Origin: Thermoplasmata archaeon
Lineage (GTDB): Archaea > Thermoplasmatota > Thermoplasmata > Lutacidiplasmatales > UBA184
Assembly (NCBI GenBank): GCA_021798415.1
Contig: JAJZGO010000002.1
Location: 159-64,158, forward strand
Reading direction: 5' to 3'
Length of the DNA: 64,000 nucleotides
Of this stretch, positions 6,272 through 50,642 are shown one piece after another. Position 1 is the first letter of the stretch. Each line of letters opens with the position of its first letter. The notes beneath the pieces are model-generated. The model saw nothing but the letters and a program-made list of their open reading frames with translations. It did not search any database and had not been told where the DNA came from. Made by a program: the position numbers and the translations under genes.

Positions 6272-6272
6272 C

Positions 6273-16292: not shown

Positions 16293-16344
16293 GGCCTGAT
16301 GGGCCAGGGGTCTTCGGGAAACGTGGCGGCACCGGAGGGATAGA

Positions 16345-24115: not shown

Positions 24116-24499
24116 ATGGCGCGACCGATCGCGGCCGGGGCGCTCACGATCCTCGGCGGGCTCTTCATCATGGCGGGCGGTGCGGTCCTCGCGTTCATCG
24201 GGGGCGTCCTCGCGGCCGTCCTGGGCGTCTTCAGCGGCCTCTTCCTCCTCGGGCTGGTGGTCGGGTTCCTCACGTTTCTCGTGGGGATCCTGATGCTCGC
24301 GCTCCCGTCGGCCCACACACTCCTCGGGATCGTGGTCATCCTGTTCGCCTTTGTGAGCATCCCGTTCGCGTTCGGTGGCCTGATCGTGGGGTTCTTCCTT
24401 GCGCTGACCGGCGGGATCCTGGCCGTCGCCTGGCATCCTCCGCAACCTTCCCCCGCGATCACGGTCGAGGGACGGGTGGTCTCCCCGCCGGCCCCGTAG
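24116..24499 (+). CDS. Small polytopic membrane protein (4 TM), unknown function
   Basis: 127 aa, almost entirely hydrophobic helices (LTILGGLFIMAGGAVLAFIGGVLAAVLGVFSGLFLLGLVVGFLTFLVGILML...). Confidence 0.5.
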   Translation: MARPIAAGALTILGGLFIMAGGAVLAFIGGVLAAVLGVFSGLFLLGLVVGFLTFLVGILMLALPSAHTLLGIVVILFAFVSIPFAFGGLIVGFFLALTGGILAVAWHPPQPSPAITVEGRVVSPPAP

Positions 24500-24622: not shown

Positions 24623-25105
24623 TTGTCTTTCGGGACCAGATACGGTGCGGGAGGTCCGGTGATCGTCGAGGGGAGCTTCCAAGTGCGTCGGGACCGTGAG
24701 AGCGTCTTCGCCTTCTTCACGGACGCTCGCGAGCTCATCGGTTGTCTCGATGACCCCCATACGGTCGAGGTTGCCGACCGGACGCACTTCTCCGGCACCG
24801 TGACCACGGGCGTCGCGTTCATCCGCGGCACGTTCCGCTTCTCGGGCGAGTACCGGGGCCTGGAGCGCCCCAGCCGCGTCGTCGCGGCCATCCACGGGGC
24901 GGGTCTCGGCAGCGGCCTCGACGCGACCCTCGCGACGGGCCTCGACGAGTCGAACGGGGTCACGACAGTGCGGTGGACCGCCGACCTTGCGTTCTCGGGT
25001 CCTCTCGCCACGGTCGGGGACCGCATCGTCCGCTCGACGGTCGACAAGAAGACGATGGGGCTCTTCGACCGGGCCCGCCAGCGGCTCGAGGCCAGTCCCC
25101 CGTAG
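24623..25105 (+). CDS. coxG: CoxG-like SRPBCC protein (CO dehydrogenase subunit G family)
   Basis: PVIVEGSFQVRRDRESVFAFFTDARELIGCL...GVAFIRGTFRFSGEY follows the CoxG pattern. It sits at the edge of the cox cluster. Confidence 0.7.
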   Translation: MSFGTRYGAGGPVIVEGSFQVRRDRESVFAFFTDARELIGCLDDPHTVEVADRTHFSGTVTTGVAFIRGTFRFSGEYRGLERPSRVVAAIHGAGLGSGLDATLATGLDESNGVTTVRWTADLAFSGPLATVGDRIVRSTVDKKTMGLFDRARQRLEASPP

Positions 25106-25185
25106 AGGGGGGTCGGCCGCGCATCGCAGCCGGTCACCGCAGGCTTCTTGCGGACGGCCGGTGTGTGGGCCGGCGCAGGCCCCCC

Positions 25186-25638
25186 ATGACGGTCGAGTTT
25201 GCCTTCAAGAAGAGCCCGGCCTACCGAGTCGCTTACATCACCTGGAAGGGACCGTGGAGCGACCGGCGGATCCAGCAGAAATTCGATACGCTCCTGGCGT
25301 GGACCCGCGACCGCCACCTCCGGACCGGCAAGTGGATCTTCCGCGAGCCGGCCGAGCGGACGTGGGAGGTGGCGATCGAGGTCCGAGGGACGGCCGTGCC
25401 GACCGCGCCGATTCGGCTCAAGACGATCCCGGCGACCTCGGTGGCCAGCGTCGTCTTTGATCCCGACGTGGTCTCCTCCGAGGTCGTGTACCACGCGCTC
25501 GTCGACTGGCTGCGCTGGCGACGCCGCGACGGCAAGGTCCGGTCGGTCGGCGGCTACCGTGAGGTCTACGACGGGGACCCCTGGCGCGACCCGAAGGTGT
25601 ACGCCCGGACGGATGTCCAGTTCGCGGTCCGTCGCTAG
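25186..25638 (+). CDS. GyrI-like small-molecule-binding domain protein
   Basis: MTVEFAFKKSPAYRVAYITWKGPW...IRLKTIPATSVASVVF...YREVYDGDPW is typical of the GyrI/AraC effector-binding fold. Start ATG 25186. Confidence 0.6.
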   Translation: MTVEFAFKKSPAYRVAYITWKGPWSDRRIQQKFDTLLAWTRDRHLRTGKWIFREPAERTWEVAIEVRGTAVPTAPIRLKTIPATSVASVVFDPDVVSSEVVYHALVDWLRWRRRDGKVRSVGGYREVYDGDPWRDPKVYARTDVQFAVRR

Positions 25639-25659
25639 GTCCGCGAGCCGCGGCGGGAC

Positions 25660-26526
25660 TCAGTCGGTGGGCCCCGCGCGGGAGTGCTCGTCGCGCCGGC
25701 CCGAGCCGCCGGCCGCGCCGTGACCGTACTTGGCCGCCACGACCTCGGCGAGGATCGACAGCGCGATCTCGCTCGGTGTTCGGGCCCCGATGTCGACCCC
25801 GACGGGCGCCCGGAGCGACGCAACGAACTCCTCGCCCACGCCGCGGGCGCGCAGCTGCTCCCGGTCCTTCTCCGCGCGATGGCGACTCGCGAGAAGCCCG
25901 ACGAACCGCAGCGGAGTCCCCGACAGAGCCGAGAGGACCGCCACGTCCCGCTCGCCCTTCGTGAGCACGACGACCGAGTCGCGGTCACCGAGCGCGAGGG
26001 CGACGGGGTCGGGAACGCCGGTGGTGAGGAGCCGGTCCGGGGCCGTCGACAACCGGGGCGCGGGGTCGACGACCACGACCTCGAATTCGAGGTCCCGGCC
26101 GAAGCGCACGAGAGACTCCTCGACGTCGTCCCGCCCGCCCTGACCGACGAGGACGAGTCGCTCCGAGGGCATCATCGGCTCGACGTGGACCTCGAGCGTT
26201 CCGCCGCAGTCGGTCTCGACGTAGATCTCGTCCGGTCCCGGGTCCGTCGTCATGCCCGCGAGGGAACCCTTCGCGTCCACGAGGTGGACCCGGACGAGGC
26301 GGCTCTCGCCGGTCCGCATCGCCTCCTCGGCGACCGCGACGATCGGGCCCTCGGGACATCCCCCGCCGAACGTCCCTCCGGCGATCGTCCCGTCGTGGGC
26401 GATCAGGAGCTTGAACCCGCGGCGGGCGAGCGTAGACCCTTCGGTCCGGACCACCGTCGCCATCGCGAACGGGCGCCGCCGGGCCGCGAGCTCGTGCACG
26501 CGCTCGGAGAACTCGTGGGAGCGCAC
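25660..26526 (-). CDS. xdhC: XdhC/CoxI-family molybdenum-cofactor insertion chaperone
   Basis: N-terminal XdhC domain FAMATVVRTEGSTLARRGFKLLIAHDGTIAGGTFGGGC and Rossmann-like LVLVGQGGRDDVEESLVRFGRDLEFEVVVVD. Confidence 0.8.
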   Translation of the reverse strand: MRSHEFSERVHELAARRRPFAMATVVRTEGSTLARRGFKLLIAHDGTIAGGTFGGGCPEGPIVAVAEEAMRTGESRLVRVHLVDAKGSLAGMTTDPGPDEIYVETDCGGTLEVHVEPMMPSERLVLVGQGGRDDVEESLVRFGRDLEFEVVVVDPAPRLSTAPDRLLTTGVPDPVALALGDRDSVVVLTKGERDVAVLSALSGTPLRFVGLLASRHRAEKDREQLRARGVGEEFVASLRAPVGVDIGARTPSEIALSILAEVVAAKYGHGAAGGSGRRDEHSRAGPTD

Positions 26527-26653
26527 GCCCGACCGACCCGACGAACGCGTATCTACTTGTCGTGGGGGTGCTCGGGGCGGCCCCTCACGGCGGCCGACCG
26601 AGAGTAGATATTCCGGTGCACGGTGCCTCGGGCCAAGAGAGGAGCTGCGGCCG

Positions 26654-27382
26654 ATGCCCCCCGCCCAACCGCGATGGTCCGTCGCCGAGGAGCGCGGCGT
26701 CTACCGCATCGCCCTCGGCGCGTGGCTCGGGCTCTTCGCCGGGGCGATCACGATCGTCCTTCCCTCGACCGCGATCTTCCTGAGCGTCTACGCCCCGGGG
26801 AGCCTCTTCTCGCTCGGAACGGCTCTCTTCCAGATCGTCGGCCTGCTCGTCCTCGGGGGGGCCGTCCTGTACCTGCTCTCCCTCTTCCTCTACCGCCGAG
26901 GCTTTGCCGCCTTGCGTCGGGTCGAGGGGGAGTTCGCGCTCGCGACGGTCCTCTGCCTCGTCGGCTCCGTCGGGTTCCTCCTCCTTCTCGTAACCGCGAC
27001 GGTCCTGGCGGGCTCGTCAGCCGCGGTCGCGGGCTGCATCCATGGTCAGCCCACCCGGTCGCTCTCCTGCCTCGAGACGAACCAGCCGCTCGGGGCGTAT
27101 ACCGCCGTCCTCGGGTTCGTCTTCGGGTGGGTCGGCGGGATCGGGATCGTCGTGGGGCTCGCGTTCGCGGGGAACCGCTTTGACGAGCCGGCCCTGCGGC
27201 TCGGCGCGTTCTTCTACCTCGGTCTTCTCGTTCTCCTGATCGCCCCGACGCTCGCCCTGATGGCGCCGTTCGACGGCGTCCAGTTCCTCCTTCTGATCGT
27301 GCCGATCCTCGCGGTCGCCGCCCCGGCGCTCGTCCTCGCGGGGACGATCCCGAAGTTGGGGAGGGTCGCGAGCGCCGCATGA
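26654..27382 (+). CDS. Polytopic membrane protein, unknown function
   Basis: ATG 26654; six or more hydrophobic helices. Its stop overlaps the msrA ATG as ATGA. Confidence 0.5.
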   Translation: MPPAQPRWSVAEERGVYRIALGAWLGLFAGAITIVLPSTAIFLSVYAPGSLFSLGTALFQIVGLLVLGGAVLYLLSLFLYRRGFAALRRVEGEFALATVLCLVGSVGFLLLLVTATVLAGSSAAVAGCIHGQPTRSLSCLETNQPLGAYTAVLGFVFGWVGGIGIVVGLAFAGNRFDEPALRLGAFFYLGLLVLLIAPTLALMAPFDGVQFLLLIVPILAVAAPALVLAGTIPKLGRVASAA

Positions 27383-27942
27383 CGACCGCGGCGGCTCCCG
27401 CACCCGAACGGTCGACGATCACGCTCGCCGGAGGCTGCTTCTGGTGCACGGAGGCGGTCTTCTCCGAACTGAAGGGCGTGCACGAGGTCGTGCCCGGCTA
27501 CACAGGCGGCACCGTGCCCCACCCGACGTACGAGGAGGTCTGCACGGGCCGCACCGGCCACGCCGAGGCGGTCGAGGTCACGTTCGACCCGCGCGAGATC
27601 CGGCTCCACGACCTGCTCGGGATCTTCTTCACGACCCACGACCCGACGACCCCGAACCGGCAGGGGAACGATGTCGGCTCACAATACCGGTCGGCGGTCT
27701 TCTACCGCGACACCGCCCAGAAGGAGGCGACGGAGGCGGTGGTGCGCGAGCTGGTCGGCCAGGGCCTGTGGCGGAGGAAGGTCGTCACCGAGATCGTCCC
27801 GTTCACGGTGTTCTTCCCGGCCGAAGCGTACCATCGCGACTACTTCCGACGCAACCCGGAGAAGGGGTACTGCCAGCTCATCATCGCCCCGAAGGTCGCG
27901 AAGCTCCGCGCACAGTACACGGACCGTCTGCGCGCCCGTTGA
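27379..27942 (+). CDS. msrA: Peptide methionine sulfoxide reductase A
   Basis: ITLAGGCFWCTEAVFSELKGV...GHAEAVEVTFDP...FFTTHDPTTPNRQGNDVGSQYRSAVFY is the canonical MsrA active site and fold. Confidence 0.9.
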   Translation: MTTAAAPAPERSTITLAGGCFWCTEAVFSELKGVHEVVPGYTGGTVPHPTYEEVCTGRTGHAEAVEVTFDPREIRLHDLLGIFFTTHDPTTPNRQGNDVGSQYRSAVFYRDTAQKEATEAVVRELVGQGLWRRKVVTEIVPFTVFFPAEAYHRDYFRRNPEKGYCQLIIAPKVAKLRAQYTDRLRAR

Positions 27943-27962
27943 CGGGGCCGGCCCGACCGCCG

Positions 27963-28538
27963 CTAGAGCGCGAGGAAGACGAAGTACGCGGCGAACGCGA
28001 GCATGATCACGCCCGAGGCGAGCGCGACCCATCGTCCGGCGCTCGGCGCCTTCCGGGTCCCCCGGTGGACCACCCAGGGGAACGCGACGATCCAGGTCGC
28101 GATCGCGCCAAATAGCCCGAGGAAGAGCGGCGCACCGCCGAGGTAGGCGAACGCGAGGCCCGACGTGAGCCACCAGAGGATCTGGAACGGGTTCGACAGC
28201 CCCATCGCGAGCGCCGCCGTGTACGTTCGGACCGGAGGCACCTCGCGCGTCGGCTCCTCGGCCCGCCGCGCGAGGAGGCGAACGCCGAAAGCGGCCGTCA
28301 CGACCGCGCCGATGACGTAGATCGCCCGCACGAACTCTCGGAGGCCAAAAGCGCTCCCGACGGCGTAGACGACCGCCCCGAGGACCGCGTCGGCGCTCAT
28401 CGCGCCGAGACCCGTGACCGCCCCTCGACGCCACGCGCGCACCGACTCGGACGCGATGAGGGCGTTCATCGGTCCCGGCGGTCCGGCCAAGGAGAGCCCG
28501 AGGACGAACCCGAACGCCACTTCGTAGGGTCCGCTCAC
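27963..28538 (-). CDS. LysE/RhtB-family amino-acid exporter
   Basis: GTG 28538 gives VSGPYEVAFGFVLGLSLAGPPGPMNALIASE..., a LysE-type N-terminus, with six TM segments. Confidence 0.7.
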   Translation of the reverse strand: MSGPYEVAFGFVLGLSLAGPPGPMNALIASESVRAWRRGAVTGLGAMSADAVLGAVVYAVGSAFGLREFVRAIYVIGAVVTAAFGVRLLARRAEEPTREVPPVRTYTAALAMGLSNPFQILWWLTSGLAFAYLGGAPLFLGLFGAIATWIVAFPWVVHRGTRKAPSAGRWVALASGVIMLAFAAYFVFLAL

Positions 28539-28554
28539 CGTCGCCGCACCGGGG

Positions 28555-29709
28555 TCACGAGAACGCGGCCGGGACGACCCGGACGCGCGCGGGGCCGTGC
28601 GACCGGGGAAAGTCCGCGGGGCCCACGAGGAGGTCGACGTGGGGGAGCGCGGCCTTGAGCGCGGCCGTCTCGGGACGGAACCCCGGGTCGGCGGCATACG
28701 GGCTCAGCCAGACGAGACGCCGCGCGCGCGCCTTGAGCCGCTCGAGCTCGCGGGCGAGGTCAAGCGAGGCGTCGAGGTCCCAGCCGTCGCTGAGGACGAG
28801 GACGGTCGTGGTCGCCCGCACGGTCGCCCCCCAGTGCCGTCGGAACTCCCCCAGGCACCGCGCGATCCGCGTGCCGCCCCCTGCGGCGGCGAGTCGGTCG
28901 GCGAGGCCCGGGATCGAGCGCTCGTACGAGAGACCCCGGAACATGGACGTGACCTCCTCGATCTCGTTGCCGAAGGCGTAGACGCGGGTCCGGAGCACCG
29001 AGCGGGCGAGCGAATGGACGAGCGCGCAGAGGGTTCCCGTGTGCTCGCGCATCGACCCGCTGACGTCCCAGAGCACGACCAGGTCGGCGCGGCGGGGCGC
29101 GCGGGACCTCCGACCGAGCCGAACCCACTCTCCGGCCGTGCGGGCCGCCGAGCGGGCTGTCCGCCTTAGGTCGATCGCGCCGTCCGGCGACGACTGCCAA
29201 CGTCGTCCGGGGAGCGTCGCGACCGACCGACGGAACCGTCGGGCCCCGGCGCGCGCGCGTCTCAGCTCGGGCGCCGGCACCGGGGCGAGCGCGTGCCCCG
29301 TGCCGGGGGCGTCGGGACTGTACCGGCCCTCGACGCGCGTCCGCCCCTCGGACTCGCTCGGCGAGGTTCCCGGGGGAACGCCACCGATCCGGCGACGCGG
29401 AACTCGGTCGCGCGGCCTCGGGCCCGCGTCCGATGGCGGCGGCACCGGCGGGGGGCCGTGCGCCGTCCAGTAGGCGTCGAACACCCGGTCGATCCGCTCG
29501 AGGTCGCCGGGCGACTTCGCGAGGGTCGCCCGGCACCCCTCAAGGACCGAGGCACGGTCGAGGATCGGCAGGGTGCGGAGCGCCCGGCCGAGGTCGACGC
29601 CGGCAGCGACCCCGACCGCAACCCCCTCGGCGCGCAGGCGGTCGAGGAACCCCTGGAGCCGGCCGAAGAAGCGGGAGCCCACCACGGACCCGCCGGGGGG
29701 CTCGTTCAT
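28555..29709 (-). CDS. coxE: VWA-domain CoxE-family protein
   Basis: ATG 29709. C-terminal VWA domain DLVVLWDVSGSMREHTGT...TTVLVLSDGWD. The ATGA overlap with coxD is typical of coxD-coxE operons. Confidence 0.8.
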   Translation of the reverse strand: MNEPPGGSVVGSRFFGRLQGFLDRLRAEGVAVGVAAGVDLGRALRTLPILDRASVLEGCRATLAKSPGDLERIDRVFDAYWTAHGPPPVPPPSDAGPRPRDRVPRRRIGGVPPGTSPSESEGRTRVEGRYSPDAPGTGHALAPVPAPELRRARAGARRFRRSVATLPGRRWQSSPDGAIDLRRTARSAARTAGEWVRLGRRSRAPRRADLVVLWDVSGSMREHTGTLCALVHSLARSVLRTRVYAFGNEIEEVTSMFRGLSYERSIPGLADRLAAAGGGTRIARCLGEFRRHWGATVRATTTVLVLSDGWDLDASLDLARELERLKARARRLVWLSPYAADPGFRPETAALKAALPHVDLLVGPADFPRSHGPARVRVVPAAFS

Positions 29710-30611
29710 GGGAGCGCGAGGAGCTCGGCGACCCGCCCGGCCCGGTAGCCTTCGAGGTCCCGCGCGTCCTTGAGCAAGAGGCCGAGGGTCTCGGCCACGG
29801 TCGGCGCGCGCAGCGATCGTTCGCCCAGGGCCAGAAGGGCCGCCGCCCAGTCGAGGGTCTCGGCGACGCCCGGCCGCTTGGCGAGGCCGTCCTCCGCTCG
29901 CAGACGCTGGACGAAACGGGTGATCTCGCCGGCGAGCGCCGCCGGGAGTTCGGGGAGACGTTGGCGGAGGATCTCGACCTCCTTCTCGGGGGTCGGGTAG
30001 CCGATGTAGGCGTACAGGCACCGACGCTTGATCGCATCGCCGAGCTCGCGCGTCCGGTTCGAGGTGAGGATCACGAGCGGGACGCGTTTCGCCCGGATCG
30101 TGCCGAGCTCGGGGACCGTCACCTGGAACTCCGAGAGGACCTCGAGAAGGAGGCCCTCGAACTCCTCGTCGGCGCGGTCGAGCTCGTCGATGAGGAGGAC
30201 GGGGCGGGCGGGGCCGGCGCCGTCGAGCGCGCGGAGGAGCGGGCGGCGGAGCAGGAACCGCTCGCTGTAGATCTCCGTCTCGACCTCGGCGGTCGTGCGG
30301 TCCCGTTCGTGGAGCCGGATCGCGAGCAGCTGGCGCGGGTAGTCCCACTCGTAGAGCGAGGCGGACGCGTCGAGGCCCTCGTAGCACTGGAGACGGATCA
30401 GCTCCGCGCCGGAGGCCGCCGCGAGGGCCTTCGCGATCTCGGTCTTGCCGCACCCCGGCTCTCCTTCGATCAGCAGCGGCTTTTCGAGCCGGACCGCGAG
30501 GTAAACCGCGGTCGCGAGACCGCGGTCGATCACGTACCGTTCGCGCGAGAGGGCTTCGAGAACCGCGTCGACCGAACGCGCGAAGTCGGGCCGATCGGTC
30601 GGTACCGTCAT
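29706..30611 (-). CDS. coxD: MoxR-type AAA+ ATPase CoxD
   Basis: Walker A LLIEGEPGCGKTEIAKALA and Walker B PVLLIDELDRADEEFEG, MoxR family. 4-nt overlaps with moaA upstream and coxE downstream. Confidence 0.85.
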   Translation of the reverse strand: MTVPTDRPDFARSVDAVLEALSRERYVIDRGLATAVYLAVRLEKPLLIEGEPGCGKTEIAKALAAASGAELIRLQCYEGLDASASLYEWDYPRQLLAIRLHERDRTTAEVETEIYSERFLLRRPLLRALDGAGPARPVLLIDELDRADEEFEGLLLEVLSEFQVTVPELGTIRAKRVPLVILTSNRTRELGDAIKRRCLYAYIGYPTPEKEVEILRQRLPELPAALAGEITRFVQRLRAEDGLAKRPGVAETLDWAAALLALGERSLRAPTVAETLGLLLKDARDLEGYRAGRVAELLALP

Positions 30612-31582
30612 GCCGAGATCCGCGTCGTCGCGCCCGGGGTCGGCTCCGGCGCCGGGGTGCGCGGCGGGAAGTCGGTCACGTACCCACCGTAGTACGGGAC
30701 GCGCGTCGCGACGACCTGACGGAACGCCGAGCGCAGGCCATCGTCGTCGAGCCCCCGCGTCGCGACGAGGTCGTCGTTGCGGTTCAGGCAACCTTTGAGC
30801 TCGCCCCGGTGGGTCACGCGGATCCGGTGGCAATGGGAGCAGAACTCGGGGTTGAAGACCGGGTCGACGACCTCGACTTCCGCTTCCCGGAAGACGTAGA
30901 TGCGCCGATGGTGCATCTCCCGGACGAGGACCCGGGTCGCGTGCTCCTCGAGCCAGCGCTTCACCGACTGGATGTCGACCATCCACTCGGGATGGGTGAC
31001 GAGCTCGGGCATGAACTGGATCAACTGGAGCTTGAGCCCGTCGGTCTCGCCGACGTATTCGACCATCCGGGGGATGTTCGCGAGGGTCGGGCGAAAGACG
31101 ACCATGTTGAGCTTCACCGGCTTCAGGCCGACCCGCAGCGACTCCCGGATCCCGCGGAGGACCGGCGCGAGCGAGCCCTTGCGGATCGAGCGGAACTGCT
31201 CGGGGTCGATCGAGTCGACCGAGACGTTCACGCGCTTGAGACCCGCATCCCGTAGCCCCTCGGCCCGTCCCTCGAGCATCGAGCCGTTGGTCGTGAGCGA
31301 CACGTCGGGGATCTCGCGCACGGTCCGGCCGACGATCTCCTCGAGGTCGAGACGAACGAGCGGTTCGCCACCGGTGAACTTCACCGACCGAATGCCGAAC
31401 TCGCGCGCGACGCGGACCAGCCGCTCGATCTCGAGGGCGGTCATCTCCTCGCCGTGGGGCGTTCGGGGGCGGTCGACGGGGCCGAGACCCTCGTCGTGGC
31501 AGTAGACGCAACCGAAGTTGCAGCGCTTGGTGACGCTGATGCGGATGTCGGTGACCTCGCGGCCGTACGCGTCCGACAGCAT
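30608..31582 (-). CDS. moaA: GTP 3',8-cyclase MoaA (molybdenum cofactor biosynthesis), archaeal type
   Basis: Radical-SAM CNFGCVYCH and the C-terminal second cluster CSHCHRIRVTHRGELKGC. TATA-like CGCTTAAAGGG about 27 bp upstream of the ATG. Confidence 0.9.
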   Translation of the reverse strand: MLSDAYGREVTDIRISVTKRCNFGCVYCHDEGLGPVDRPRTPHGEEMTALEIERLVRVAREFGIRSVKFTGGEPLVRLDLEEIVGRTVREIPDVSLTTNGSMLEGRAEGLRDAGLKRVNVSVDSIDPEQFRSIRKGSLAPVLRGIRESLRVGLKPVKLNMVVFRPTLANIPRMVEYVGETDGLKLQLIQFMPELVTHPEWMVDIQSVKRWLEEHATRVLVREMHHRRIYVFREAEVEVVDPVFNPEFCSHCHRIRVTHRGELKGCLNRNDDLVATRGLDDDGLRSAFRQVVATRVPYYGGYVTDFPPRTPAPEPTPGATTRISA

Positions 31583-31732
31583 CCTCCCGACCTATCAGCG
31601 GCCCCCTTTAAGCGGTTTTACCGGCCCATATCGGGCCCCGGGGGGCCCGGGACCCTCCCCCCGTGAGTCGGTTTCGCAAGGACTATAGCGCACGAGCCGT
31701 TGGGACTCCGGGGCGAAGCCCCGGGTGGTCGG

Positions 31733-32608
31733 ATGATCCCGCCGCAGTTCGAGTACTATGCCCCGAGTTCCGTGGACGAGGCCGTGGCCCTCCTTCGCCG
31801 GTTCGACGGCGAGGCGAAGGTGCTCGCCGGAGGGCATAGCCTGATCCCGCTCATGAAGCTCCGATTGGCGGAGCCGAAGGCGCTCGTCGACATCAACCGG
31901 ATCCCGAACCTGGCGTACCTCCGGGAGGAGGACGGCTACCTCCGGATCGGTGCGACCACGCGGACCGGGGATCTGCTCGACTCGGCGCTCCTGAGGAAGT
32001 CGTACCCGATCCTTACGGACGCAGCCCAGGAGATCGCGGACCCGCTCGTCCGCAACCTCGGCACCGTCGGTGGGAACGTCTGCCACGGAGACCCCGGCAA
32101 CGACCTCCCGGCCTGCATCCTCGCGCTCGGCGCGGTGCTCGCCGTGACGGGGCCGACCGGCCCGCGCGAGATCCCGGCCGCCGAGTTCTACCGCGACACC
32201 TTCGTCACGGCGCTCGAACCGACCGAGATCCTCACCGAGGTCCGGATCCCGAAGGCGCGGTCCCACCAAGGCAACGCCTACCAGAAGATCGAAAAGCGGG
32301 TCGGCGATTTCGCGATCGCCGGTGCGGCGGCGAACCTGGTCGTCGACGGCGCGGGCCGTATCGAGACCGCCGGTCTCGCCCTCACCGGCGTCGGCCCCAC
32401 GGTCGTCCCGGCGACGGCGGCCGCGGCCGCGCTCGTCGGGGAGGTCCTGAGCGAGACCCACCTCGCGAACGCGGCGCGGCTCGCGGAGGCGGCGACGGAT
32501 CCCTCCGGGGACCTCCGCGGGCCGGTTGCGTACAAGCGCGCGATGGCCGGCGTCCTCGTGCGTCGGGCGCTCGAACGGGCGCTCGCCCGCGCGAAGGGAG
32601 GCAGCTAG
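31733..32608 (+). CDS. coxM: CO dehydrogenase medium subunit (FAD-binding), CoxM
   Basis: FAD-binding PCMH-type domain AKVLAGGHSLIPLMKLRLAEP...GATTRTGDL...GTVGGNVCHGDPGNDL. Confidence 0.85.
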   Translation: MIPPQFEYYAPSSVDEAVALLRRFDGEAKVLAGGHSLIPLMKLRLAEPKALVDINRIPNLAYLREEDGYLRIGATTRTGDLLDSALLRKSYPILTDAAQEIADPLVRNLGTVGGNVCHGDPGNDLPACILALGAVLAVTGPTGPREIPAAEFYRDTFVTALEPTEILTEVRIPKARSHQGNAYQKIEKRVGDFAIAGAAANLVVDGAGRIETAGLALTGVGPTVVPATAAAAALVGEVLSETHLANAARLAEAATDPSGDLRGPVAYKRAMAGVLVRRALERALARAKGGS

Positions 32609-33163
32609 ATGGCGACGAGCGCTCGACCCGTCGCCCCGGCGGCTTCCCTTACCTCGGCCGGCGGCCCGACCTCTCGGATCCAGGTCACCGTCAACGGTCG
32701 GTCGGTCGTCGCCGAGGTCGAGCCGCGGACCCTCCTGGTCCACTTCCTGCGCGAGGTCCTCGGGCTCACCGGGACCCACATCGGCTGCGACACCTCCCAC
32801 TGCGGGGCGTGCACCGTCCACCTCGACGGCAAGCCGGTGAAGTCGTGCACCGTCCTGGCGGTCCAGGTGAGCGGACGCGAGGTCCGTACCGTCGAGGGCC
32901 TCGAGGTCGACGGGAAGCTTTCTCCGGTCCAGGAGGCGTTTGTCGAGGCGCACGGGCTCCAGTGCGGGTTCTGCACGCCCGGCATGATGATGACCGCGAC
33001 CGCGCTCCTCGCGCGAAACCCGAACCCGACGGACGCCGAGACCCGGGACGCGATCCGGGGCAATCTCTGCCGGTGCACGGGCTACGTGAACATCGTGAAG
33101 GCGATCCAGCTCGCGGGCAAGAAGATGCAATCCGCGAGCTCGGCGCCGGGAGGCAAGCCGTGA
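32609..33163 (+). CDS. coxS: CO dehydrogenase small subunit ([2Fe-2S]), CoxS
   Basis: [11 protein letters not shown] (plant-type [2Fe-2S]) and [10 protein letters not shown]...CRCTGY (second cluster). Confidence 0.9.
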
Positions 33164-35517
33164 GCGCGCAGGTTCCCAGCGTGAAGGGCGGGATCGGCCA
33201 GTCGATCCTCCGCAAGGAGGACGGGCGGTTCGTTCGGGGCAAGGGGAGCTACATTGACGACTTCAAGCTCCCCGGGATGCTCTACCTCGATATCGCCCGC
33301 AGCCCGTACGCGCACGCCAAGATCACGGCGATCCGCACCGACAAGGCGCTCAAGGTCCCCGGCGTCCTCGCGGTGATCACGGGCAAGGACCTCGAGGCCG
33401 CCGGCCTCGCGTGGATGCCGACCCTCATGTCCGATAAGCAGATGGTGCTGCCCACGGACACCGTCATGTACCAAGCCCAAGAGGTCGTCGGGGTCGTCGC
33501 CGACAGCCGCTACGCCGCCGCCGACGGGGCCGCCGCGGTCGAGGTCGACTACGAGCCGCTCCCGGTCGTGACGGACCCGTTCAAGGCGATCGCGCCGGGC
33601 GCGCCGGTGATCCGGACCGACCGCAAGGAAGCGTCGAACCACATCTGGCATTGGGAGACCGGCGACCGGGCGGGTACCGACCGGGCGTTCGCCGCCGCGC
33701 CCGTGAGCGTGGCCCAGGACCTGTACATCCCGCGGATCCACGTCTCGTCGATGGAGACGTGCGGGTGCATCGCACAGATGGACCCCGTCTCGGGCCGGTT
33801 CACCATCTGGATGACGACTCAGGCGCCGCACGCGATCCGCACGGTCTTCGCGCTCGTGACGGGTCTCCCCGAGCAGAACATCCGCGTCATCTCCCCCGAC
33901 ATCGGGGGCGGGTTCGGCGGGAAGGTGCCGGTCTATCCGGGCTACGTCCTCGCGTCGGTCGCATCGATCAAGACCGGCCGACCGGTGAAATGGATCGAGG
34001 ACCGGTCGGAGAACCTCCAGGCCGACTCGTTCGCCCGGGACTACCACATCCACGCGGAGGTGGCGGCCGAGCGCGACGGAACGGTGACGGCGCTGCGCGT
34101 CAAGACGCTCGCCGACCACGGCTACACGGACGCGGCGGCGAACCCGTCGAAGTTCCCCGCGGGCCTCTTTCACATCATCACGGGCTCCTATCCGTTCGCG
34201 CAGGCGTTCGTCGAGGTCGACGCCGCGTACACGAACAAGCCGCCGGGCGGGATCGCCTACCGTTGCTCGTTCCGCGTCACCGAGGCGGTCTACACGATCG
34301 AACGGATGATGGACATCCTCGCGCACCGCCTGCGGGTCGACCCGGCCGAGCTGAGGCTGAAGAACTTCATCCCGCCCGAGGCGTTCCCCTACCGCTCCGC
34401 TCTCGGCTGGACCTACGACAGCGGAAACTACGGTGCCGCGCTCGCGAAAGCGATGGAGATCATCGACTACGCGGGCCTCCGGCGCGAGCAGGCGGAGAAG
34501 CGCCGCAAGGGCGAGCTGATGGGGATCGGCATCTCGAGCTTCACCGAGATCGTCGGCGCGGGGCCGAGCGCCACGTTCGACATCCTCGGCATCAAGATGT
34601 TCGACTCGGCCGAGGTCCGCATCCACCCGACCGGGAAGGTGCTCGCCCGCTTCGGGACGAAGTCTCAGGGCCAGGGCCACGAGACGACGTACGCGCAGAT
34701 TCTCGCCGAGGAGCTCGGGATCCCGGCCGACGACATCCGGGTCGAGGAAGGCGACACCGACACCGCCCCGTACGGGCTCGGCACCTACGCGAGCCGCAGC
34801 ACCCCCACCGCGGGGGCGGCCGCCGCCATCGCGGCGCGGAAGATCCGGGAGAAGGGCCGTCGGATCGCGGCGCACCTCCTCGAGGTCAGCCCCGACGACG
34901 TCGAGTGGAAGGACTTCGCGTTCCGCGTCAAGGGCGTCCCGACGAAGTCGAAGACGATGCAGGAGGTCGCCTTCGCCGCGTACACGAACCACCCCCCCGG
35001 CGTCGAAGCGGGGCTCGAGGCCGTCGACTACTACGACCCGCCGAACATGACCTATCCGTTCGGGAGCTACATCTGTGTGGTCGACATCGACAAGGAGACG
35101 GGCCAGGTGAAGGTCCGCCGGTTCGTCGCGGTCGACGACTGCGGTACGATCATCAACCCCATGATCGTCGACGGGCAGATCCACGGGGGCCTCACGATGG
35201 GGTTCGCTCCGGCGCTGCTCGAGGAGATCCAGTACGACGAGAACGGGAACATCCACGGCGGCTCGTTCATGGACTATCTCGTGCCGACCGCGGTCGAGAC
35301 GCCGAACTGGGAGACCGCGAAGACCGTGACACCGAGCCCCCACCACCCGCTCGGCGCGAAGGGCGTCGGGGAGTCGGCGACGGTCGGCGCCCCGCCGGCG
35401 ATCGTCAACGCGGTCGTCGACGCGCTCCAGCCGTACGGTGTCGAGCACATCGACATCCCGATCCATCCGTGGAAGGTCTGGCAGATCCTCCACGCGAAGG
35501 GTGCCCCGACGCCGTAG
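33160..35517 (+). CDS. coxL: Form-I aerobic CO dehydrogenase large subunit (Mo-MCD binding), CoxL
   Basis: A GTG at 33160 overlaps the coxS stop (GTGA). The molybdopterin-binding aldehyde-oxidase fold is present. The active-site loop [13 protein letters not shown] carries the AYXCSFR signature specific for form I, the true CO dehydrogenase. Confidence 0.9.
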
Positions 35518-35554
35518 CGACTTCCCCCGTGGCCCGGTGCGGACGGACCGCCGG

Positions 35555-36514
35555 CTAGAGACGGGGCACGCGCGGGCCGGGCGCCTCGGCGAGCGGGACG
35601 CTCACGCTCGAGGGGACGCCCCGGCGGGAGAGCCCCACCTCGACGTCCGAGCCCACGGGGAACTTCGCGAGCGCTTCGAGGAGGTCACGGACGGAACGGA
35701 CCTCGAACGGCCCGACGCGGACGAGCACGTCTCCCCGCTTCAGCCCGGCGCGGTGCGCGGGGGATCGGGGGACGACCTCGTCGACCCAGACCCCCGACCC
35801 GGCGGGGAGAGCGGTCGCCCGGGCGAGGGCCGGCCCGAGCTCGGCGACGACGACCCCGACCCAAGAACGGACGACCCGCCCGCTCCGCCGCAGCTCGTCG
35901 GCGATCCGACGAACGGCATCGATCGGGATCGCGAACCCGACGCCCTGGGCGAACGGCATCATCGCGGTGTTGAGACCGATCACGGTGCCGCCGAGGTCGA
36001 CGAGCGGGCCGCCGCTGTTCCCGGGATTGATGGCGGCGTCCGTCTGGATCAGGCCCTCGAAGATGAAATCGGATCCCGGCAGGGGACGGCCGAGCGCGCT
36101 CACCACGCCCGTCGATACCGTCGGGCCGCCCGGGAGCCCGAGCGCGTGCCCGACCGCGAGCACGACCTGGCCGACCCGAAGCGCGGACGACCTGCCGAGC
36201 GGCGCCGCCGGGGCGTCCACCGCGTCGACCTTGACGAGGGCGACGTCGGTGACCGCGTCCCCTCCGAGGACCTCGGCGGCGAGGTCCCTGCCGTCCGCGA
36301 GCCGGACCCGTACCTCGGTCGCCCCGTCAACGACGTGCTGGTTGGTGACGACGAACCCGGTCCGATCGAGGACCACGCCGGTCGCGTTCGCCGACGGGCC
36401 GAATGGGTTCGCCCGGGGACGTCGGTCGGGGCGGACGCTCTCCACGCCCGCGACGCACGGGCCGATCGTCTCGACCGCGGAGACGATCCGCTCCTCGAGG
36501 TCGCCGTGGAGCAT
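35555..36514 (-). CDS. htrA: HtrA/DegP-family trypsin-like serine protease with PDZ domain
   Basis: Catalytic-triad context TNQHVV (His), DVALVKV (Asp), GNSGGPLV (Ser), plus a C-terminal PDZ domain GVWVDEVVPRSPAHRAGLKRGDVLVRVG. Confidence 0.85.
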   Translation of the reverse strand: MLHGDLEERIVSAVETIGPCVAGVESVRPDRRPRANPFGPSANATGVVLDRTGFVVTNQHVVDGATEVRVRLADGRDLAAEVLGGDAVTDVALVKVDAVDAPAAPLGRSSALRVGQVVLAVGHALGLPGGPTVSTGVVSALGRPLPGSDFIFEGLIQTDAAINPGNSGGPLVDLGGTVIGLNTAMMPFAQGVGFAIPIDAVRRIADELRRSGRVVRSWVGVVVAELGPALARATALPAGSGVWVDEVVPRSPAHRAGLKRGDVLVRVGPFEVRSVRDLLEALAKFPVGSDVEVGLSRRGVPSSVSVPLAEAPGPRVPRL

Positions 36515-36612
36515 CCGCGCCGCCTACGTCGACCGGGGCCGGGGCAGCATCGGCTCCGGCCCCACCGGCGGATGCGGCAAGGGGCCGAGCGGGGAACCGA
36601 CCGACATCGCGC

Positions 36613-36867
36613 TCACTCCGAAAGGAGGTGCTCGAGCTTCGCGAACAGCTCGCCCTCTTCCTTCTCCTTCTTCCGCCCGCCGTCCCAGCGGGCGTTGACG
36701 ATCTGGACCAGCAGGTCGGCGACCTGGTCCATCCACGGCCCCTCCTGGGCGTCGAACCGCTTCTTGATCTTGTCGCGAAGCAGCTCGTGGTAGGCCCGGT
36801 AGGCCGACCAGACCCACGGACCGTAGTTCGCTCGTCCCGCCATTCCCTCTTCGCATCCTTCCGACAT
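36613..36867 (-). CDS. Small helical hypothetical protein
   Basis: MSEGCEEGMAGRANYGPWVWSAYRAYHELLRDKIKKRFDAQEGPWMDQVADLL...KKEKEEGELFAKLEHLLSE. No recognisable family; the start could be ATG 36867 or 36843. Confidence 0.35.
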   Translation of the reverse strand: MSEGCEEGMAGRANYGPWVWSAYRAYHELLRDKIKKRFDAQEGPWMDQVADLLVQIVNARWDGGRKKEKEEGELFAKLEHLLSE

Positions 36868-37002
36868 CGTGCCTTCCTCGGGACGGTTTCCGTCCCGAAC
36901 GAGGCAGCGCGCGGCCGAGGATATTGAGCGGGTCGGGCCCGTCTCGGTCACACGTCCCTCGGCCGGCGGGAGCGGACGCGTCACGGCCGGCGGACCCAAC
37001 CA

Positions 37003-37018
37003 GTAACGCTCCCGTTAC
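37003..37018. promoter_or_regulatory. Perfect inverted repeat GTAACGctccCGTTAC in a divergent promoter region
   Basis: 6-bp arms with a 4-bp spacer, about 40 bp upstream of the wHTH regulator ATG 37056 and about 140 bp from the divergent small gene. The GTTAC/GTAAC core also occurs in the conserved 35-bp element. Confidence 0.4.
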
Positions 37019-37055
37019 CGCGGGCCTAAATCCCCGGTCGTGCCTTTTCCCACCG

Positions 37056-37676
37056 ATGGGCCTCCGAGCGGACGAGCGCACCCTCGCGTCGAGCGGACGG
37101 CTCGACGACCGGGTGCTCGACGCCCTCCAGGGCCTGCCGGGCCGCATGGCGTTCAGCGGGCTACGGCGCGTGCTGGGCGCTCACCCGGAGTCGCTCGCGA
37201 GGTCGCTGCGCCGCCTCGAGCGGGAGGGGCTGGTCGAGCGTGTGGACGGGGGTTACCGGGCCCTTGAGGGGGTCGAACGCTCGGTCGACGAGATGACCTC
37301 GGACCTTCGACCCGTCGCCCAGGTCGACCTCCCGGTCGGAACCTCGGCCGAAATGCTGCTCGGACGCCTGGCCGGGCGATGGTTCGGCGCCCTGCGCTGG
37401 GTCGGCGTGGTCGAGCGGCCGGACGGCCGGCTGCTCTCCTGGGCCCGGCGGGACGGATCGGGCCACGTGCTCCTCGGCATCGACCGCGGCACGCTGCGCG
37501 TCTATCGGCCGAGCGGTGCGCCCGACGAAGAACCGGCCGAGACCGAGGACGCGGCGTACGAGTTGCTCGTTCACGCCGTGGAGGCGCTACGCCCGACCCC
37601 CGGCGCTCCGGGGCCGATCACCTTCCTTCGGCGGCAAGGGTCTCCGGCCCCCCTGTTCGGCTGGGCCGAGAACTGA
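37056..37676 (+). CDS. Winged-HTH transcriptional regulator with C-terminal sensory/dimerisation domain
   Basis: N-terminal wHTH DDRVLDALQGLPGRMAFSGLRRVLGAHPESLARSLRRLEREGLVERV. ATG 37056. Confidence 0.55.
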   Translation: MGLRADERTLASSGRLDDRVLDALQGLPGRMAFSGLRRVLGAHPESLARSLRRLEREGLVERVDGGYRALEGVERSVDEMTSDLRPVAQVDLPVGTSAEMLLGRLAGRWFGALRWVGVVERPDGRLLSWARRDGSGHVLLGIDRGTLRVYRPSGAPDEEPAETEDAAYELLVHAVEALRPTPGAPGPITFLRRQGSPAPLFGWAEN

Positions 37677-37706
37677 CCCGCGCTCCGTCGTCTCGTCCCC
37701 GAGCTC

Positions 37707-39353
37707 CTAGCGGGCGAGGAACTCCTCGGGATGCTCGGTGAATCGTCGCAGGCAGCTCTCCGCGCAAAAGTAGTACGTCGTGCCGGAGCGCTCCAACCTG
37801 AGCGATGTCGTCGCCGGGTCGACCTCCATGTGGCAGACCGGATCGACCGCGGTCGTCGAGCCCCCGAGACCCGGCTCCGACGTGGCGGGCGGTGGGACGG
37901 TCCCTCGACGACGTTCGACGATCTCGGCGAGGATGCTGAGCGCGATCTCCTCGGGGGTCCGGGCGCCGATATCGAGACCCGCGGGGGCGCGGACCCGGGC
38001 GAGAGCGTCGGAGGGGACGCCGTGGGTGCGCAGCTCCTCGAGCAGGATCCCGGCGCGGCGCCGACTCGCCACGAGCGCCACGTAGGGCGCCGGCGACCGG
38101 ACGAGTGCCTCGAGGGCGAGGCCGTCGTACTCGGCCATCGTCGCCACGACGGCGTAGCTCGTGGGGTCGGCCTTCGCGGCGAGGTCGGCGACGTCGGCGA
38201 CGACCTCGTCGGCGTCGGGGAAGCGGGCGGGATCGAGCCCGGGGCCGGCCACGACCACGCGGTACCCCAAGAGCCGCCCGAGCGCCGAGAGGCCTTCGGC
38301 GACCGCGGACTCCCCGACGACGATCAGCTGGGGCGACGCACCGTGCGGCTCAAGGTAGATGTCCATGGCTCCTCCGCTCTGGCACTGCAAGATCCGGTCG
38401 ACGACGCCGGACGACGGCGGGGGCGCCGGCTCGGCCCCCGGCCGGAGGCGCAGAAGGCGCGGCTGGCCGTCCGCGAGAGCGGCTCGCGACTCGGCCACGA
38501 GCGCGTGCCGCGAGCAGCTTCCCCCGATCCACCCATCGATCGTCCCGTTCTCCCGCACGACCGCCTTGAACCCGGGCTTTCCCGAGGTCGGCGCCGTCAC
38601 GCGGGTCACGATCGCGAGGCAGAACGGTTCCCGGCGCCGCTCGAGCTCCGCGACGAGGCCGAGCACGTCGTCGCGCCCGCGGGTCCGTCGTCGGGCCTTC
38701 GTCATCCCCGACCCAAGGGGTCGGTTCGAGTCGAGCGCGGCCGCGACCTCCGCGAGGTCCGCTCCCCGGGAGAGGGCGGCCTCGACCCGGGCGAGGTCGT
38801 CGGGAGTGTCGAGGTCGACCACGACCCCGGGGTCGTCGACCGGAACCTCCACGGTCTCCTCGGGATGCCGCTGATGGAGGGCCCGGCACCCTCGGTCGCC
38901 CGAGATCCGGTCGACCTCGGTCTCGAGCGTCCGGTCGATCAGCACCGGATTGCCCCGGACCCCGCGGTACGTGGGAAGGACGATGCGGGCCCCGGTGCGC
39001 GCCCGCGCGGCGCGCAGCGCGGCGTACGTCGACGAACGGACGAACGGGGCGTCGCCGAGGACGACGAAGAACGCCCGGGACGACGGGTCGAGCGCGGCGA
39101 CGCCCGCGCGCAGCGAACTGCTCATCCCGTCGCGGAACCTCGGGTTCACGACGACCCGGGCTTCGCCGAGCGGTACCGCGCTCCGGACCCGGTCGGCTTC
39201 GAACCCCAGCACCACGACCGTCTCCCCGACGTCGCTGGCCCGCACCGCGTCCAGGACGTGGGCCAGGAGCGGTCGACCGTCGAGCTCGACCAAGGGTTTC
39301 GGCGCGCCCATCCGCGTCGAGGCACCTGCCGCAAGAACCACGGCGGAGATCAT
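37707..39353 (-). CDS. Tri-domain fusion: MocA-like molybdenum-cofactor cytidylyltransferase, XdhC/CoxI domain and a C-terminal YHS/TRASH metal-binding domain
   Basis: N-terminal MISAVVLAAGASTRMGAPKPLV (MobA/MocA nucleotidyltransferase). Middle REPFCLAIVTRVTAPTSGKPGFKAVV...LIVVGESAVAEGLSALGRLLGYRVVVAGP (XdhC N-terminal plus Rossmann). C-terminal VCHMEVDP...YYFCAESC (YHS). Confidence 0.8.
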   Translation of the reverse strand: MISAVVLAAGASTRMGAPKPLVELDGRPLLAHVLDAVRASDVGETVVVLGFEADRVRSAVPLGEARVVVNPRFRDGMSSSLRAGVAALDPSSRAFFVVLGDAPFVRSSTYAALRAARARTGARIVLPTYRGVRGNPVLIDRTLETEVDRISGDRGCRALHQRHPEETVEVPVDDPGVVVDLDTPDDLARVEAALSRGADLAEVAAALDSNRPLGSGMTKARRRTRGRDDVLGLVAELERRREPFCLAIVTRVTAPTSGKPGFKAVVRENGTIDGWIGGSCSRHALVAESRAALADGQPRLLRLRPGAEPAPPPSSGVVDRILQCQSGGAMDIYLEPHGASPQLIVVGESAVAEGLSALGRLLGYRVVVAGPGLDPARFPDADEVVADVADLAAKADPTSYAVVATMAEYDGLALEALVRSPAPYVALVASRRRAGILLEELRTHGVPSDALARVRAPAGLDIGARTPEEIALSILAEIVERRRGTVPPPATSEPGLGGSTTAVDPVCHMEVDPATTSLRLERSGTTYYFCAESCLRRFTEHPEEFLAR

Positions 39354-48498: not shown

Positions 48499-48639
48499 GA
48501 GAGTGCCGTCTCTAGGAACGCGCGGGCGCACCTTGAAAAGCTGTCGGTCCGGGCGATTCTCGCAAAGGACGGCGACGACCGGAGGCGCGCCGAGACGACG
48601 CCCCGTCCGTGTCCATCGATGCCCTCGGACCGGCCCCTA

Positions 48640-49045
48640 GTTCCTAGGGAAGTGGGGGACCGCCCGGAAGTTGCCCTCGGAACCCTCGAAGCGGCCGATC
48701 CGCCAGCCCCACGGTTGCGCCTTAGGGGTCCCAGAAAGGGAACGTCCTCGTTCGTGAGCTCCGAGCATTCCCGGCCCGTGTCGTCCACGAAGTAGGCAAC
48801 GTAGGCTCGGCGGGTCGTCCCCTCCCCCCGTCGAAGCCGGGAGGGTCACCACCCGAAGTGGCCCGCCACTGGAGGGTTTTGTCGTTCGGTTCGAATCCCT
48901 TGGCGCCGCGGAAGACCCGGTCGAGGTAATCCACCCTTAGGGAACGGAGGGTTTCCGAAGCTGGGTCGGCGCAGCCCGCTCGGCCGCCCGACGCGTTCCT
49001 CCCCGCCCTTTCATCTCCCGAACGCCATTTGCGCTCCCGAGATCA
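48640..49045 (-). pseudogene. Frameshifted VOC/glyoxalase-family pseudogene (paralog of 56625..57026)
   Basis: The segments FEGSEGNFRAVPHFPRN*, YLDRVFRGAKGFEPNDKTLQWRAT and VAYFVDDTG lie in three different frames. In order they align with EDPEGNLWEISHFPKE*, AYEELRKKGVRFLQPPDTRPNGQRFAFF and LAVFLDDAD of the intact VOC gene. Confidence 0.45.
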
Positions 49046-49053
49046 GCCGGACC

Positions 49054-49932: not shown

Positions 49933-49976
49933 TAGCCAGCTAATGTTAGGGATGGATTTAAGGATTCGTGCGGTAG

Positions 49977-50601: not shown

Positions 50602-50642
50602 GCAACCGTCAGGGTCCTTGCCCGAGTTTTCATAAGCTTGGC

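Follow-up and report, generated by a model that had tools for sequence, protein, structure and literature searches.

Form I carbon monoxide (CO) dehydrogenase (CODH) is a textbook enzyme, and the systems already described provide the frame for the gene cluster presented here, a set of cox genes in a 64,000-nucleotide stretch of DNA (the window) from contig JAJZGO010000002.1 of an uncultured soil Thermoplasmata archaeon. Archaeal form I CODH has been established experimentally in Halobacteria and Sulfolobales (PMC11018855, PMC6794299). In Oligotropha carboxidovorans OM5 (Afipia; PDB 1N5W, 1ZXI), the plasmid pHCG3 carries coxMSL followed by genes for a MoxR ATPase, a von Willebrand A (VWA) protein, XdhC, CoxG and a further XdhC. 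The window shares with it the coxM-coxS-coxL order, an identical AYRCSFR loop and the same accessory set, but differs in that coxD and coxE, which lie downstream of coxL in O. carboxidovorans, belong to a divergent operon whose first gene is an archaeal-type moaA, the MHYT-domain genes (coxB, coxC, coxH) and coxK are missing, the CoxF-like protein forms a fusion with MocA and with a YHS domain that O. carboxidovorans CoxF does not have, and both the host and the style of the candidate promoters are archaeal.

The closest cultured relative is Thermomicrobium roseum, a bacterial thermophile of the 'mixed' clade (Cordero et al. 2019) that oxidises atmospheric CO during persistence (PMC6776052). 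Its coxMSL genes are likewise followed by an XdhC-YHS fusion, although its MocA is encoded by a separate upstream gene and the 20-kb stretch compared has no annotated coxD, coxE or coxG. The plasmid cluster of Natronorubrum bangense resembles the window in its archaeal host, AYRCSFR loop, coxG, coxMSL, XdhC-YHS, MoxR ATPase, VWA protein and second XdhC, but its CoxL is only 58% identical, the cluster is encoded on a single strand throughout and its operon lacks moaA. Among the Sulfolobales, which were set beside the window by description, Acidianus brierleyi (coxEDLSMF) also has an archaeal form I enzyme with the AYXCSFR signature that is active on CO (PMC11018855), but in another phylum and with another gene order. 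Form II enzymes (AYRGAGR) have the same three-subunit xanthine-oxidase-family architecture and often have coxG, MoxR, VWA and XdhC neighbours; in contrast to the window CoxL, to which they are 40-49% identical, they lack the Cu-ligand Cys, follow the SLM order and fall outside the form I clade.

Compared with these systems, the window in all likelihood encodes a functional-looking form I aerobic CODH, that is, a Mo-Cu enzyme dependent on molybdopterin cytosine dinucleotide (MCD), in an archaeon of ~70% GC. The first-pass annotation of this DNA described such modules as sparsely reported in archaea. This is true in general, but not of the lineage itself: a 2024 cave metagenome study noted CO dehydrogenases encoded by the Thermoplasmata orders RBG-16-68-12 and UBA184, and a marine survey of 2026 reported two Mo-CODHs from Thermoplasmatota, placed in clades dominated by bacteria. 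Papers on Ca. Angelarchaeales (RBG-16-68-12) and on Yaplasmales contain no discussion of aerobic CODH, and the description of Lutacidiplasmatales (UBA184) never mentions CO (PMC9287336). Because the 2024 survey had already flagged both orders, the novelty is modest, and the locus is best regarded as a further well-documented form I CODH in this lineage.

CoxL and the structural genes

The assignment of CoxL to form I, first made from its AYRCSFR loop, is borne out by profile scores, sequence identity, conserved residues and phylogeny. CoxL scores 1227.4 bits with NCBIfam TIGR02416 (CO_dehy_Mo_lg, equivalog; cut-off 991.15, a margin of 236) and stays below the cut-off of every other xanthine-dehydrogenase-family model in NCBIfam, including those for glyceraldehyde dehydrogenase and the "group 5" exception model. 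Against the PDB, the best matches are the solved form I CoxL proteins of O. carboxidovorans (1N5W, 1052 bits), M. smegmatis (8UEM, 1050 bits) and H. pseudoflava (1FFU, 1039 bits), and the next family is quinoline oxidoreductase at 483 bits. Since the protein that carries AYRCSFR matches solved CoxL structures at 1052 bits, the motif is not a chance occurrence. The alignment with 1N5W spans the full length without a frameshift and places the loop (residues 366-372) on O. carboxidovorans residues 385-391, including the Cu-ligand Cys388. By pairwise alignment, Q221, C369 and E738 correspond to O. carboxidovorans Q240, C388 and E763, and the equivalents of R387 and F390 are likewise kept.

CoxL is 60% identical to that of O. 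carboxidovorans and 73% identical to that of T. roseum; the boundary between form I and form II lies at 55% identity in Cordero et al., with form II below it (PMC6794299). Matches to CoxL in a tblastn search against 72,556 plasmids were bimodal, with seven records (T. roseum and O. carboxidovorans among them) at 60-80% identity and the rest below 60%, none higher than 43% among the matches listed. The low-identity matches that were sampled have the AYRGAGR loop and the coxSLM order of form II, as opposed to the order of the window, where coxM, coxS and coxL all lie on the forward strand. Neighbour-joining phylogenies with 100 bootstraps, rooted with a different member of the family, unite all AYRCSFR sequences in a single form I clade (100/100) and leave the AYRGAGR sequences outside it; placing CoxL against form I and form II references, the check suggested in the first-pass annotation, therefore groups it with form I and not with form II or other members of the xanthine-dehydrogenase family.

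The two other subunits conform to the same pattern. CoxM is 47% identical to its O. carboxidovorans counterpart, and CoxS is 63% identical, with matching CxxxxCxxC, CxxC and CxC motifs of the two [2Fe-2S] sites. Because the window is ~70% GC, spurious frames swamp raw lists of open reading frames (ORFs), and genes were resolved by third-position GC (GC3) together with Pfam and NCBIfam. Every cox ORF is full length and uninterrupted, and the frameshift that might have broken the cluster was looked for and found in none of the cox genes. The start-stop overlaps reported for coxM-coxS-coxL hold for coxS and coxL, where the GTG of coxL overlaps the TGA of coxS by 4 nt (GTGA), but not for coxM and coxS, where the TAG directly abuts the ATG with zero overlap. 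The moaA/coxD and coxD/coxE junctions each overlap as ATGA, and Shine-Dalgarno-like motifs precede coxS (GGGAGG) and coxL (GGAGG-type). The ratio of nonsynonymous to synonymous substitution rates (dN/dS; Nei-Gojobori, against the related loci L001, L003 and L004) ranges from 0.085 to 0.11 for coxL and from 0.10 to 0.37 for the remaining cox genes, moaA and the XdhC genes, values that indicate purifying selection.

Two side observations concern the same protein families. CoxS has an Ala/Ser/Pro-rich N-terminal extension of ~20 aa (window 32609-32670; 184 aa in all against 166 aa in O. carboxidovorans), which is genuine provided that translation begins with the ATG at 32609, as an upstream in-frame stop fixes the start. 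On the contig of a related Thermoplasmata metagenome-assembled genome (MAG; L007), three xanthine-oxidase-family large-subunit paralogues occur within 19 kb: at 4337-6292, 10001-12322 and 16104-18428. They comprise a form I protein (AYRCSFR), a form II protein (AYRGAGR) with 49% identity to the window CoxL, and a divergent third (31%), which suggests that the family has repeatedly expanded in these archaea.

By homology to enzymes that have been solved or studied genetically, CoxL would oxidise CO to CO2 at a [CuSMoO2] site with the Cys of AYRCSFR as the Cu ligand. The electrons would then travel via the two CoxS [2Fe-2S] clusters to the FAD in CoxM, and CoxG is predicted to carry a membrane quinone to the FAD site, by which the electrons would enter an aerobic respiratory chain. 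CoxG has been characterised as a menaquinone shuttle (PMC12202499); the best PDB match of the window protein is Aeropyrum pernix APE2225.

Maturation genes and the MocA-XdhC-YHS fusion

Genetic studies of CoxD, CoxE, CoxF and CoxG have attributed sulfuration to CoxD and copper supply to CoxE and CoxF (PMC4240915). The maturation set of the window is intact, with a CoxD-type AAA+ ATPase, a CoxE-type VWA protein, a CoxF-like XdhC protein and, for MCD synthesis, MocA. CoxD is 57% identical to its O. carboxidovorans counterpart and has Walker A (GEPGCGKT) and Walker B (LLIDELD) motifs in its translation, and CoxE, at 32% identity, has a DVSGS motif (DxSxS, MIDAS-type). MoaA passes the archaeal model TIGR02668 moaA_archaeal of NCBIfam with a score of 346.3 (cut-off 325.25). 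In the assembly pathway that we propose, MoaA would start the synthesis of the molybdenum cofactor (Moco), the MocA domain would add CMP to yield MCD, and XdhC-type proteins would hold and insert the cofactor. CoxD would drive sulfuration, while CoxE and the CoxF-like XdhC would deliver Cu(I), the latter carrying a YHS/TRASH Cys triad of its own.

The first-pass annotation listed MocA and two XdhC/CoxI chaperone copies near coxMSL. All of these domains are present, but MocA and the second XdhC proved to be parts of one 548-aa ORF that continues into a YHS domain. Besides its Pfam matches (Table 1), this protein matches the MocA model TIGR03310 with an E-value of 1.6e-43, below the model cut-off. 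Both XdhC paralogues are closer to CoxF than to CoxI of O. carboxidovorans, at 33% against 25% identity for the stand-alone protein and 40% against 23% for the XdhC part of the fusion. The stand-alone gene is kept near the cluster in six related loci (L001, L003, L004, L009, L012 and L013).

The fusion is widely conserved. The full MocA-XdhC-YHS set occurs in all but three of 120 listed protein clusters (48-99% identity), and the named carriers among them are all Thermoplasmata or Methanobacteriota archaea. A 99%-identical protein with the same neighbours is encoded on contig DAHVBM010000003.1 (GCA_027316015.1). XdhC-YHS proteins without MocA, or with MocA as an adjacent gene, are encoded beside form I coxL in 65 of the loci that were fetched, spread over many bacterial phyla (e.g., L082 11408-12418, L088 9950-11089, L089 7968-9029 and L090 7992-9047). 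Likewise, six plasmid matches to XdhC extend through the YHS part; four of them belong, by annotation, to aerobic CO dehydrogenase clusters (in T. roseum, Deinococcus, Paraburkholderia and Natronorubrum), and the other two, on Caballeronia plasmids, lie within ~3 kb of the form I coxL, judged by coordinates.

The Cys triad of the window YHS domain is spaced C-x21-C-x3-C, and C-x(18-23)-C-x3-C is found in 65 of 65 YHS segments of the fetched loci; the TRASH signature, in the domain description by Ettema et al. in 2003, is reportedly C-x(19-22)-C-x3-C. A Cys-triad metal domain fused to this protein is suggestive because CoxF has been proposed as the copper donor. Hence we tentatively propose, giving the idea somewhat less than even weight, that the YHS/TRASH triad on CoxF-type XdhC could be a dedicated Cu(I)-binding and delivery module for assembly of the [CuSMoO2] site. 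If this is true, a single Thermoplasmata polypeptide would cytidylylate Moco, hold the cofactor and supply the copper. As a separate matter, an assignment of the YHS metal from PDB structures was tried and given up, the only matches being weak ones to ribosomal L24e and to the YHS region of phenol hydroxylase, which are uninformative on copper. No paper linking YHS to XdhC, or TRASH to CO dehydrogenase, was found in the searchable literature library.

Cluster layout, promoter region and neighbouring genes

The accessory genes that the first-pass annotation had placed around coxMSL (coxD, coxE, coxG, moaA, the XdhC copies and mocA) were all found at or near the positions it gave (Table 1). Its description as a full module needs one correction: all of the named genes are present and intact, but they are not contiguous, as they form three cox blocks split by unrelated genes. 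Seven unrelated or unassigned genes lie inside the span, encoding a GyrI-like protein, a membrane protein, MsrA, LysE, an HtrA-like protease, a small ORF and a helix-turn-helix (HTH) protein. The msrA gene had been considered as a candidate cofactor gene and was ruled out by its identification as MsrA.

Table 1. Features of the cox region, in window coordinates (bits are Pfam scores)
Feature	Position	Strand	Description
DUF6114	24116-24499	+	
coxG	24623-25105	+	SRPBCC-type CoxG, 160 aa, predicted quinone-shuttling partner; COXG PF06240 (76 bits, cut-off 22)
GyrI-like protein	25183-25638	+	
XdhC-family maturation factor, stand-alone	25660-26526	-	CoxF/CoxI-like, 288 aa; XdhC_CoxI, XdhC_C
Membrane protein	26639-27382	+	Membrane-like, zero Pfam matches
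MsrA	27379-27942	+	
LysE	27963-28697	-	
coxE	28555-29709	-	VWA protein, 384 aa; VWA_CoxE (155 bits)
coxD	29706-30611	-	MoxR-type AAA+ ATPase, 301 aa; AAA_5, AAA, AAA_3
moaA	30608-31582	-	Archaeal-type GTP 3',8-cyclase, first gene of moaA-coxD-coxE operon; Radical_SAM, Mob_synth_C
Divergent spacer	31583-31732		150 nt
TTTAAG, TATA-like	31607-31612		~28 nt upstream of moaA ATG; sequence read directly
Conserved block TTTCGCAAGGACTATAG	31672-31688	+	Contains TATA-like CTATAG (31683-31688), ~47 nt upstream of coxM ATG
coxM	31733-32608	+	FAD-binding medium subunit, 291 aa; FAD_binding_5 (178 bits), CO_deh_flav_C
coxS	32609-33163	+	[2Fe-2S] small subunit, 184 aa; Fer2, Fer2_2
coxL	33160-35517	+	Form I Mo-Cu CODH catalytic subunit, 785 aa, GTG start
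HtrA-like protease	35555-36514	-	
Small ORF	~36613-36867	-	
Winged-helix (MarR-like) protein	37056-37676	+	206 aa (gene call of NCBI record); MarR_2 and HVO_A0261_N below cut-off
MocA-XdhC-YHS fusion	37707-39353	-	MocA (Moco cytidylyltransferase), CoxF-like XdhC and C-terminal YHS/TRASH in one 548-aa ORF; NTP_transf_3 (135 bits), XdhC_CoxI, XdhC_C, YHS PF04945 (51.9 bits, cut-off 30.3)

Comparison with related loci shows which parts of this arrangement are stable. L001 is syntenic with the window over the full 22 kb compared. In the family to which the window belongs (L001-L006), the HtrA-like protease, the small ORF and the HTH gene stand between coxL and the fusion gene, and the winged-helix gene keeps this position in L001-L005. 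Its product is a possible regulator of the cluster, although its membership of the cluster is uncertain. More distant archaeal loci have a coxMSL-coxG order and a convergent fusion gene: coxG lies directly downstream of coxL in L007-L013. In L003-L005, coxG lies directly downstream of coxE. In the window and L001, the block of coxG, GyrI-like, XdhC, membrane protein, MsrA and LysE genes (window 24623-28697) runs in the opposite orientation to that of L003-L005, where it lies at 1352-5313, 2167-5318 and 2257-5310, respectively; the inversion is bounded by DUF6114 and coxE.

Divergent TATA-like elements at 31605-31690 had been said to serve moaA-coxD-coxE on one side and coxMSL on the other. The A/T-rich hexamers are real and conserved in six loci, and a promoter function can be proposed for them. 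At the alignment columns of TTTAAG, L001-L005 have TTATAG, ATATAG or TTTATAG, and the block TTTCGCAAGGACTATAG, which is followed by a Shine-Dalgarno-like GGTGG at about -8 from coxM, is the best-conserved stretch of the spacer in the window and these five loci. Both A/T-rich elements are conserved in position in the five related loci, while the spacers are otherwise ~68% identical. The spacing of TTTAAG at about -28 from the moaA ATG fits a leaderless archaeal transcript, and this element is a candidate promoter of a leaderless moaA-coxD-coxE transcript. The block TTTCGCAAGGACTATAG is a candidate coxMSL promoter, possibly with a regulator site. The 150-nt spacer probably holds two divergent archaeal promoters, one for the leaderless moaA-coxD-coxE transcript and one from which coxMSL would be transcribed behind a short leader, with Shine-Dalgarno-like motifs.

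Outside the cluster, several features of the window deserve mention. No RNA feature was found in the cox cluster by Rfam and tRNA scans, and the sole tRNA in the window is tRNA-Thr(CGT) at 50531-50603 on the reverse strand. It lies in a region (48000-60000) with a GC content of 64-67%, compared with ~70-72% elsewhere, which contains a run of genes for small regulators and proteins of detoxification type, namely MarR, a methyltransferase, a SnoaL-like protein, an AlkZ-like glycosylase, a glyoxalase, AHSA1 and HxlR proteins, and no integrase among the ORFs scanned. A full-length homologue of peptidase M2, the angiotensin-converting-enzyme family, at 43242-44978 on the reverse strand (710 bits over the whole Pfam model) is kept in L001, L004 and L005 at 72-95% identity. 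On the same strand, a 1415-aa ORF at 8899-13146 whose GC3 of 0.91 gives a strong coding signal, with an N-terminal signal-like hydrophobic segment and no NCBIfam match, probably encodes a large secreted or surface protein. Two repair genes are present, one for a DNA alkylation repair enzyme (PF08713; 42455-43261, reverse strand) and one for the AlkZ-like DNA glycosylase (PF06224; 53739-54989, forward strand); together with MsrA and the HtrA-like protease beside the cox genes, they make the neighbourhood rich in damage-repair functions.

Physiological role, host and origin

Supplementary energy from trace CO (carboxydovory) is the likely physiological role of this system, although the window genes alone cannot separate a carboxydovore from a carboxydotroph. 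Several points weigh against this picture of a functional form I CODH feeding aerobic respiration. Genes for a terminal oxidase, quinone biosynthesis or CO2 fixation were not seen among the genes annotated in the 64-kb window, so that the case for respiratory coupling comes from published work on related orders. The identity of CoxG to its O. carboxidovorans counterpart is only 23%, and the inversion puts coxG ~3.5 kb from coxE. The extreme GC3 bias may distort dS, the promoter calls draw on nothing beyond short A/T-rich motifs, and the CoxL trees are neighbour-joining trees with a small reference set in which haloarchaeal form I is represented by one sequence and Sulfolobales by none.

One could envisage that the enzyme is a true form I CODH that serves CO detoxification or passes electrons to an acceptor other than O2 (e.g., nitrate under microoxic conditions), and not one for trace-gas scavenging. 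Apart from the missing respiratory genes, this would agree with the description of Lutacidiplasmatales as facultative anaerobes of waterlogged acidic soils (PMC9287336), with SPRUCE peat among the sources of related loci and with the stress-related neighbours MsrA and HtrA-like protease. However, the cluster includes coxG, whose product has been characterised as the link between the enzyme and the quinone pool (PMC12202499), the T. roseum enzyme supports persistence on atmospheric CO (PMC6776052), and complex IV is common in at least one host order, being present in 19 of the 22 more complete Lutacidiplasmatales genomes (PMC9287336). We therefore consider detoxification or another acceptor improbable and favour aerobic oxidation of trace CO.

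The archaeal origin of the contig, which the first-pass annotation had also stated, is sound, because archaeal gene types lie on the contig itself, twelve archaeal MAGs carry the closest CoxL proteins and one of the carriers (L009) is AcS1-67, a published genome of Ca. Lutacidiplasmatales (UBA184). A scan of one genome per GTDB species for CoxL relatives returned 80 loci, and the 12 closest (78-97% identity) come from MAGs labelled Thermoplasmata archaeon (11) or Methanobacteriota archaeon (1). That the contig could be bacterial DNA mis-binned into archaeal MAGs is a thought prompted by the nearest CoxL sequences outside Thermoplasmata, all of which are bacterial (72-79% identity), and by the fact that most window genes are not diagnostic of a domain; nor does the 64-kb window contain any rRNA or ribosomal-protein marker. 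Yet the archaeal-type moaA, above its TIGR02668 cut-off, is translationally coupled to coxD, and the same contig carries an archaeal LonB (TIGR00764, the best match of an ORF truncated at the window end) and an NMN adenylyltransferase of archaeal type, which passes NF002243 and falls just below the cut-off of TIGR01527 arch_NMN_Atrans (169.5 against 181.2). The twelve MAGs derive from independent soil, peat and sediment studies and different assemblers, several on contigs of 128-350 kb. GC is uniform over the cluster and its flanks, Lutacidiplasmatales genomes have ~67-71% GC (PMC9287336), and the TATA-like element upstream of moaA has the spacing of a leaderless archaeal transcript. Mis-binning is thus very hard to credit.

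No more credible is the view that CoxL is a form II or other xanthine-dehydrogenase-family enzyme (e.g., glyceraldehyde, quinoline or nicotinate dehydrogenase) with a similar loop and that the cluster does not oxidise CO; the family is large and paralogous, L007 holds a form II copy and a third paralogue besides form I, and NCBIfam glyceraldehyde dehydrogenase models score strongly on the three subunits (615, 283 and 251 bits) but under their cut-offs (790, 350 and 290), while the exact loop with its Cu-ligand Cys, the single model passed, a solved-CoxL score twice that of quinoline oxidoreductase, the monophyly of form I, the MSL order and the presence of coxD, coxE and a coxF-like gene exclude that identity for practical purposes.

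Within form I, the Thermoplasmata CoxL sequences form a clade (100/100) that is nested among bacterial "mixed-clade" sequences, as sister to three Chloroflexota MAG sequences (83/100). The N. bangense CoxL branches off basally within form I and joins the Thermoplasmata clade in none of the bootstraps (0/100), which points to a separate origin or acquisition. As the clade is nested in bacterial sequences and apart from the haloarchaeal form I, the data are most simply explained by one transfer from bacteria into an ancestor of these Thermoplasmata, independent of Halobacteria. The enzyme genes, acquired once, would then have been joined to an archaeal-type moaA, rearranged and held under purifying selection. 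A bacterial acquisition has likewise been proposed for the form I CODH of Sulfolobales (PMC11018855). Haloarchaeal ancestry was considered and set aside: the best haloarchaeal plasmid match of the first search (Natrinema, 43%) is a form II sequence with AYRGAGR, and the true haloarchaeal form I sequence of Natronorubrum, found through the XdhC-YHS search, does not join the Thermoplasmata clade.

The locus leaves knowledge of the enzyme itself unchanged. The conserved XdhC-YHS fusion, with MocA added in Thermoplasmata, could nevertheless help to settle the copper route to the active site; if the proposed role of the Cys triad is true, it would lend independent genomic support to the contested proposal that CoxF donates the copper, and would offer a tractable approach to Cu insertion. 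For the organisms, the window offers a well-resolved, syntenic example of form I CODH in soil Thermoplasmata. Lutacidiplasmatales and their relatives are abundant and uncultured in acidic soils, peat and sediments, and the cluster makes CO a possible means of enriching these archaea or assaying their activity. It also supports trace-gas scavenging in a third archaeal lineage beyond Halobacteria and Sulfolobales, reached through a separate bacterial transfer.

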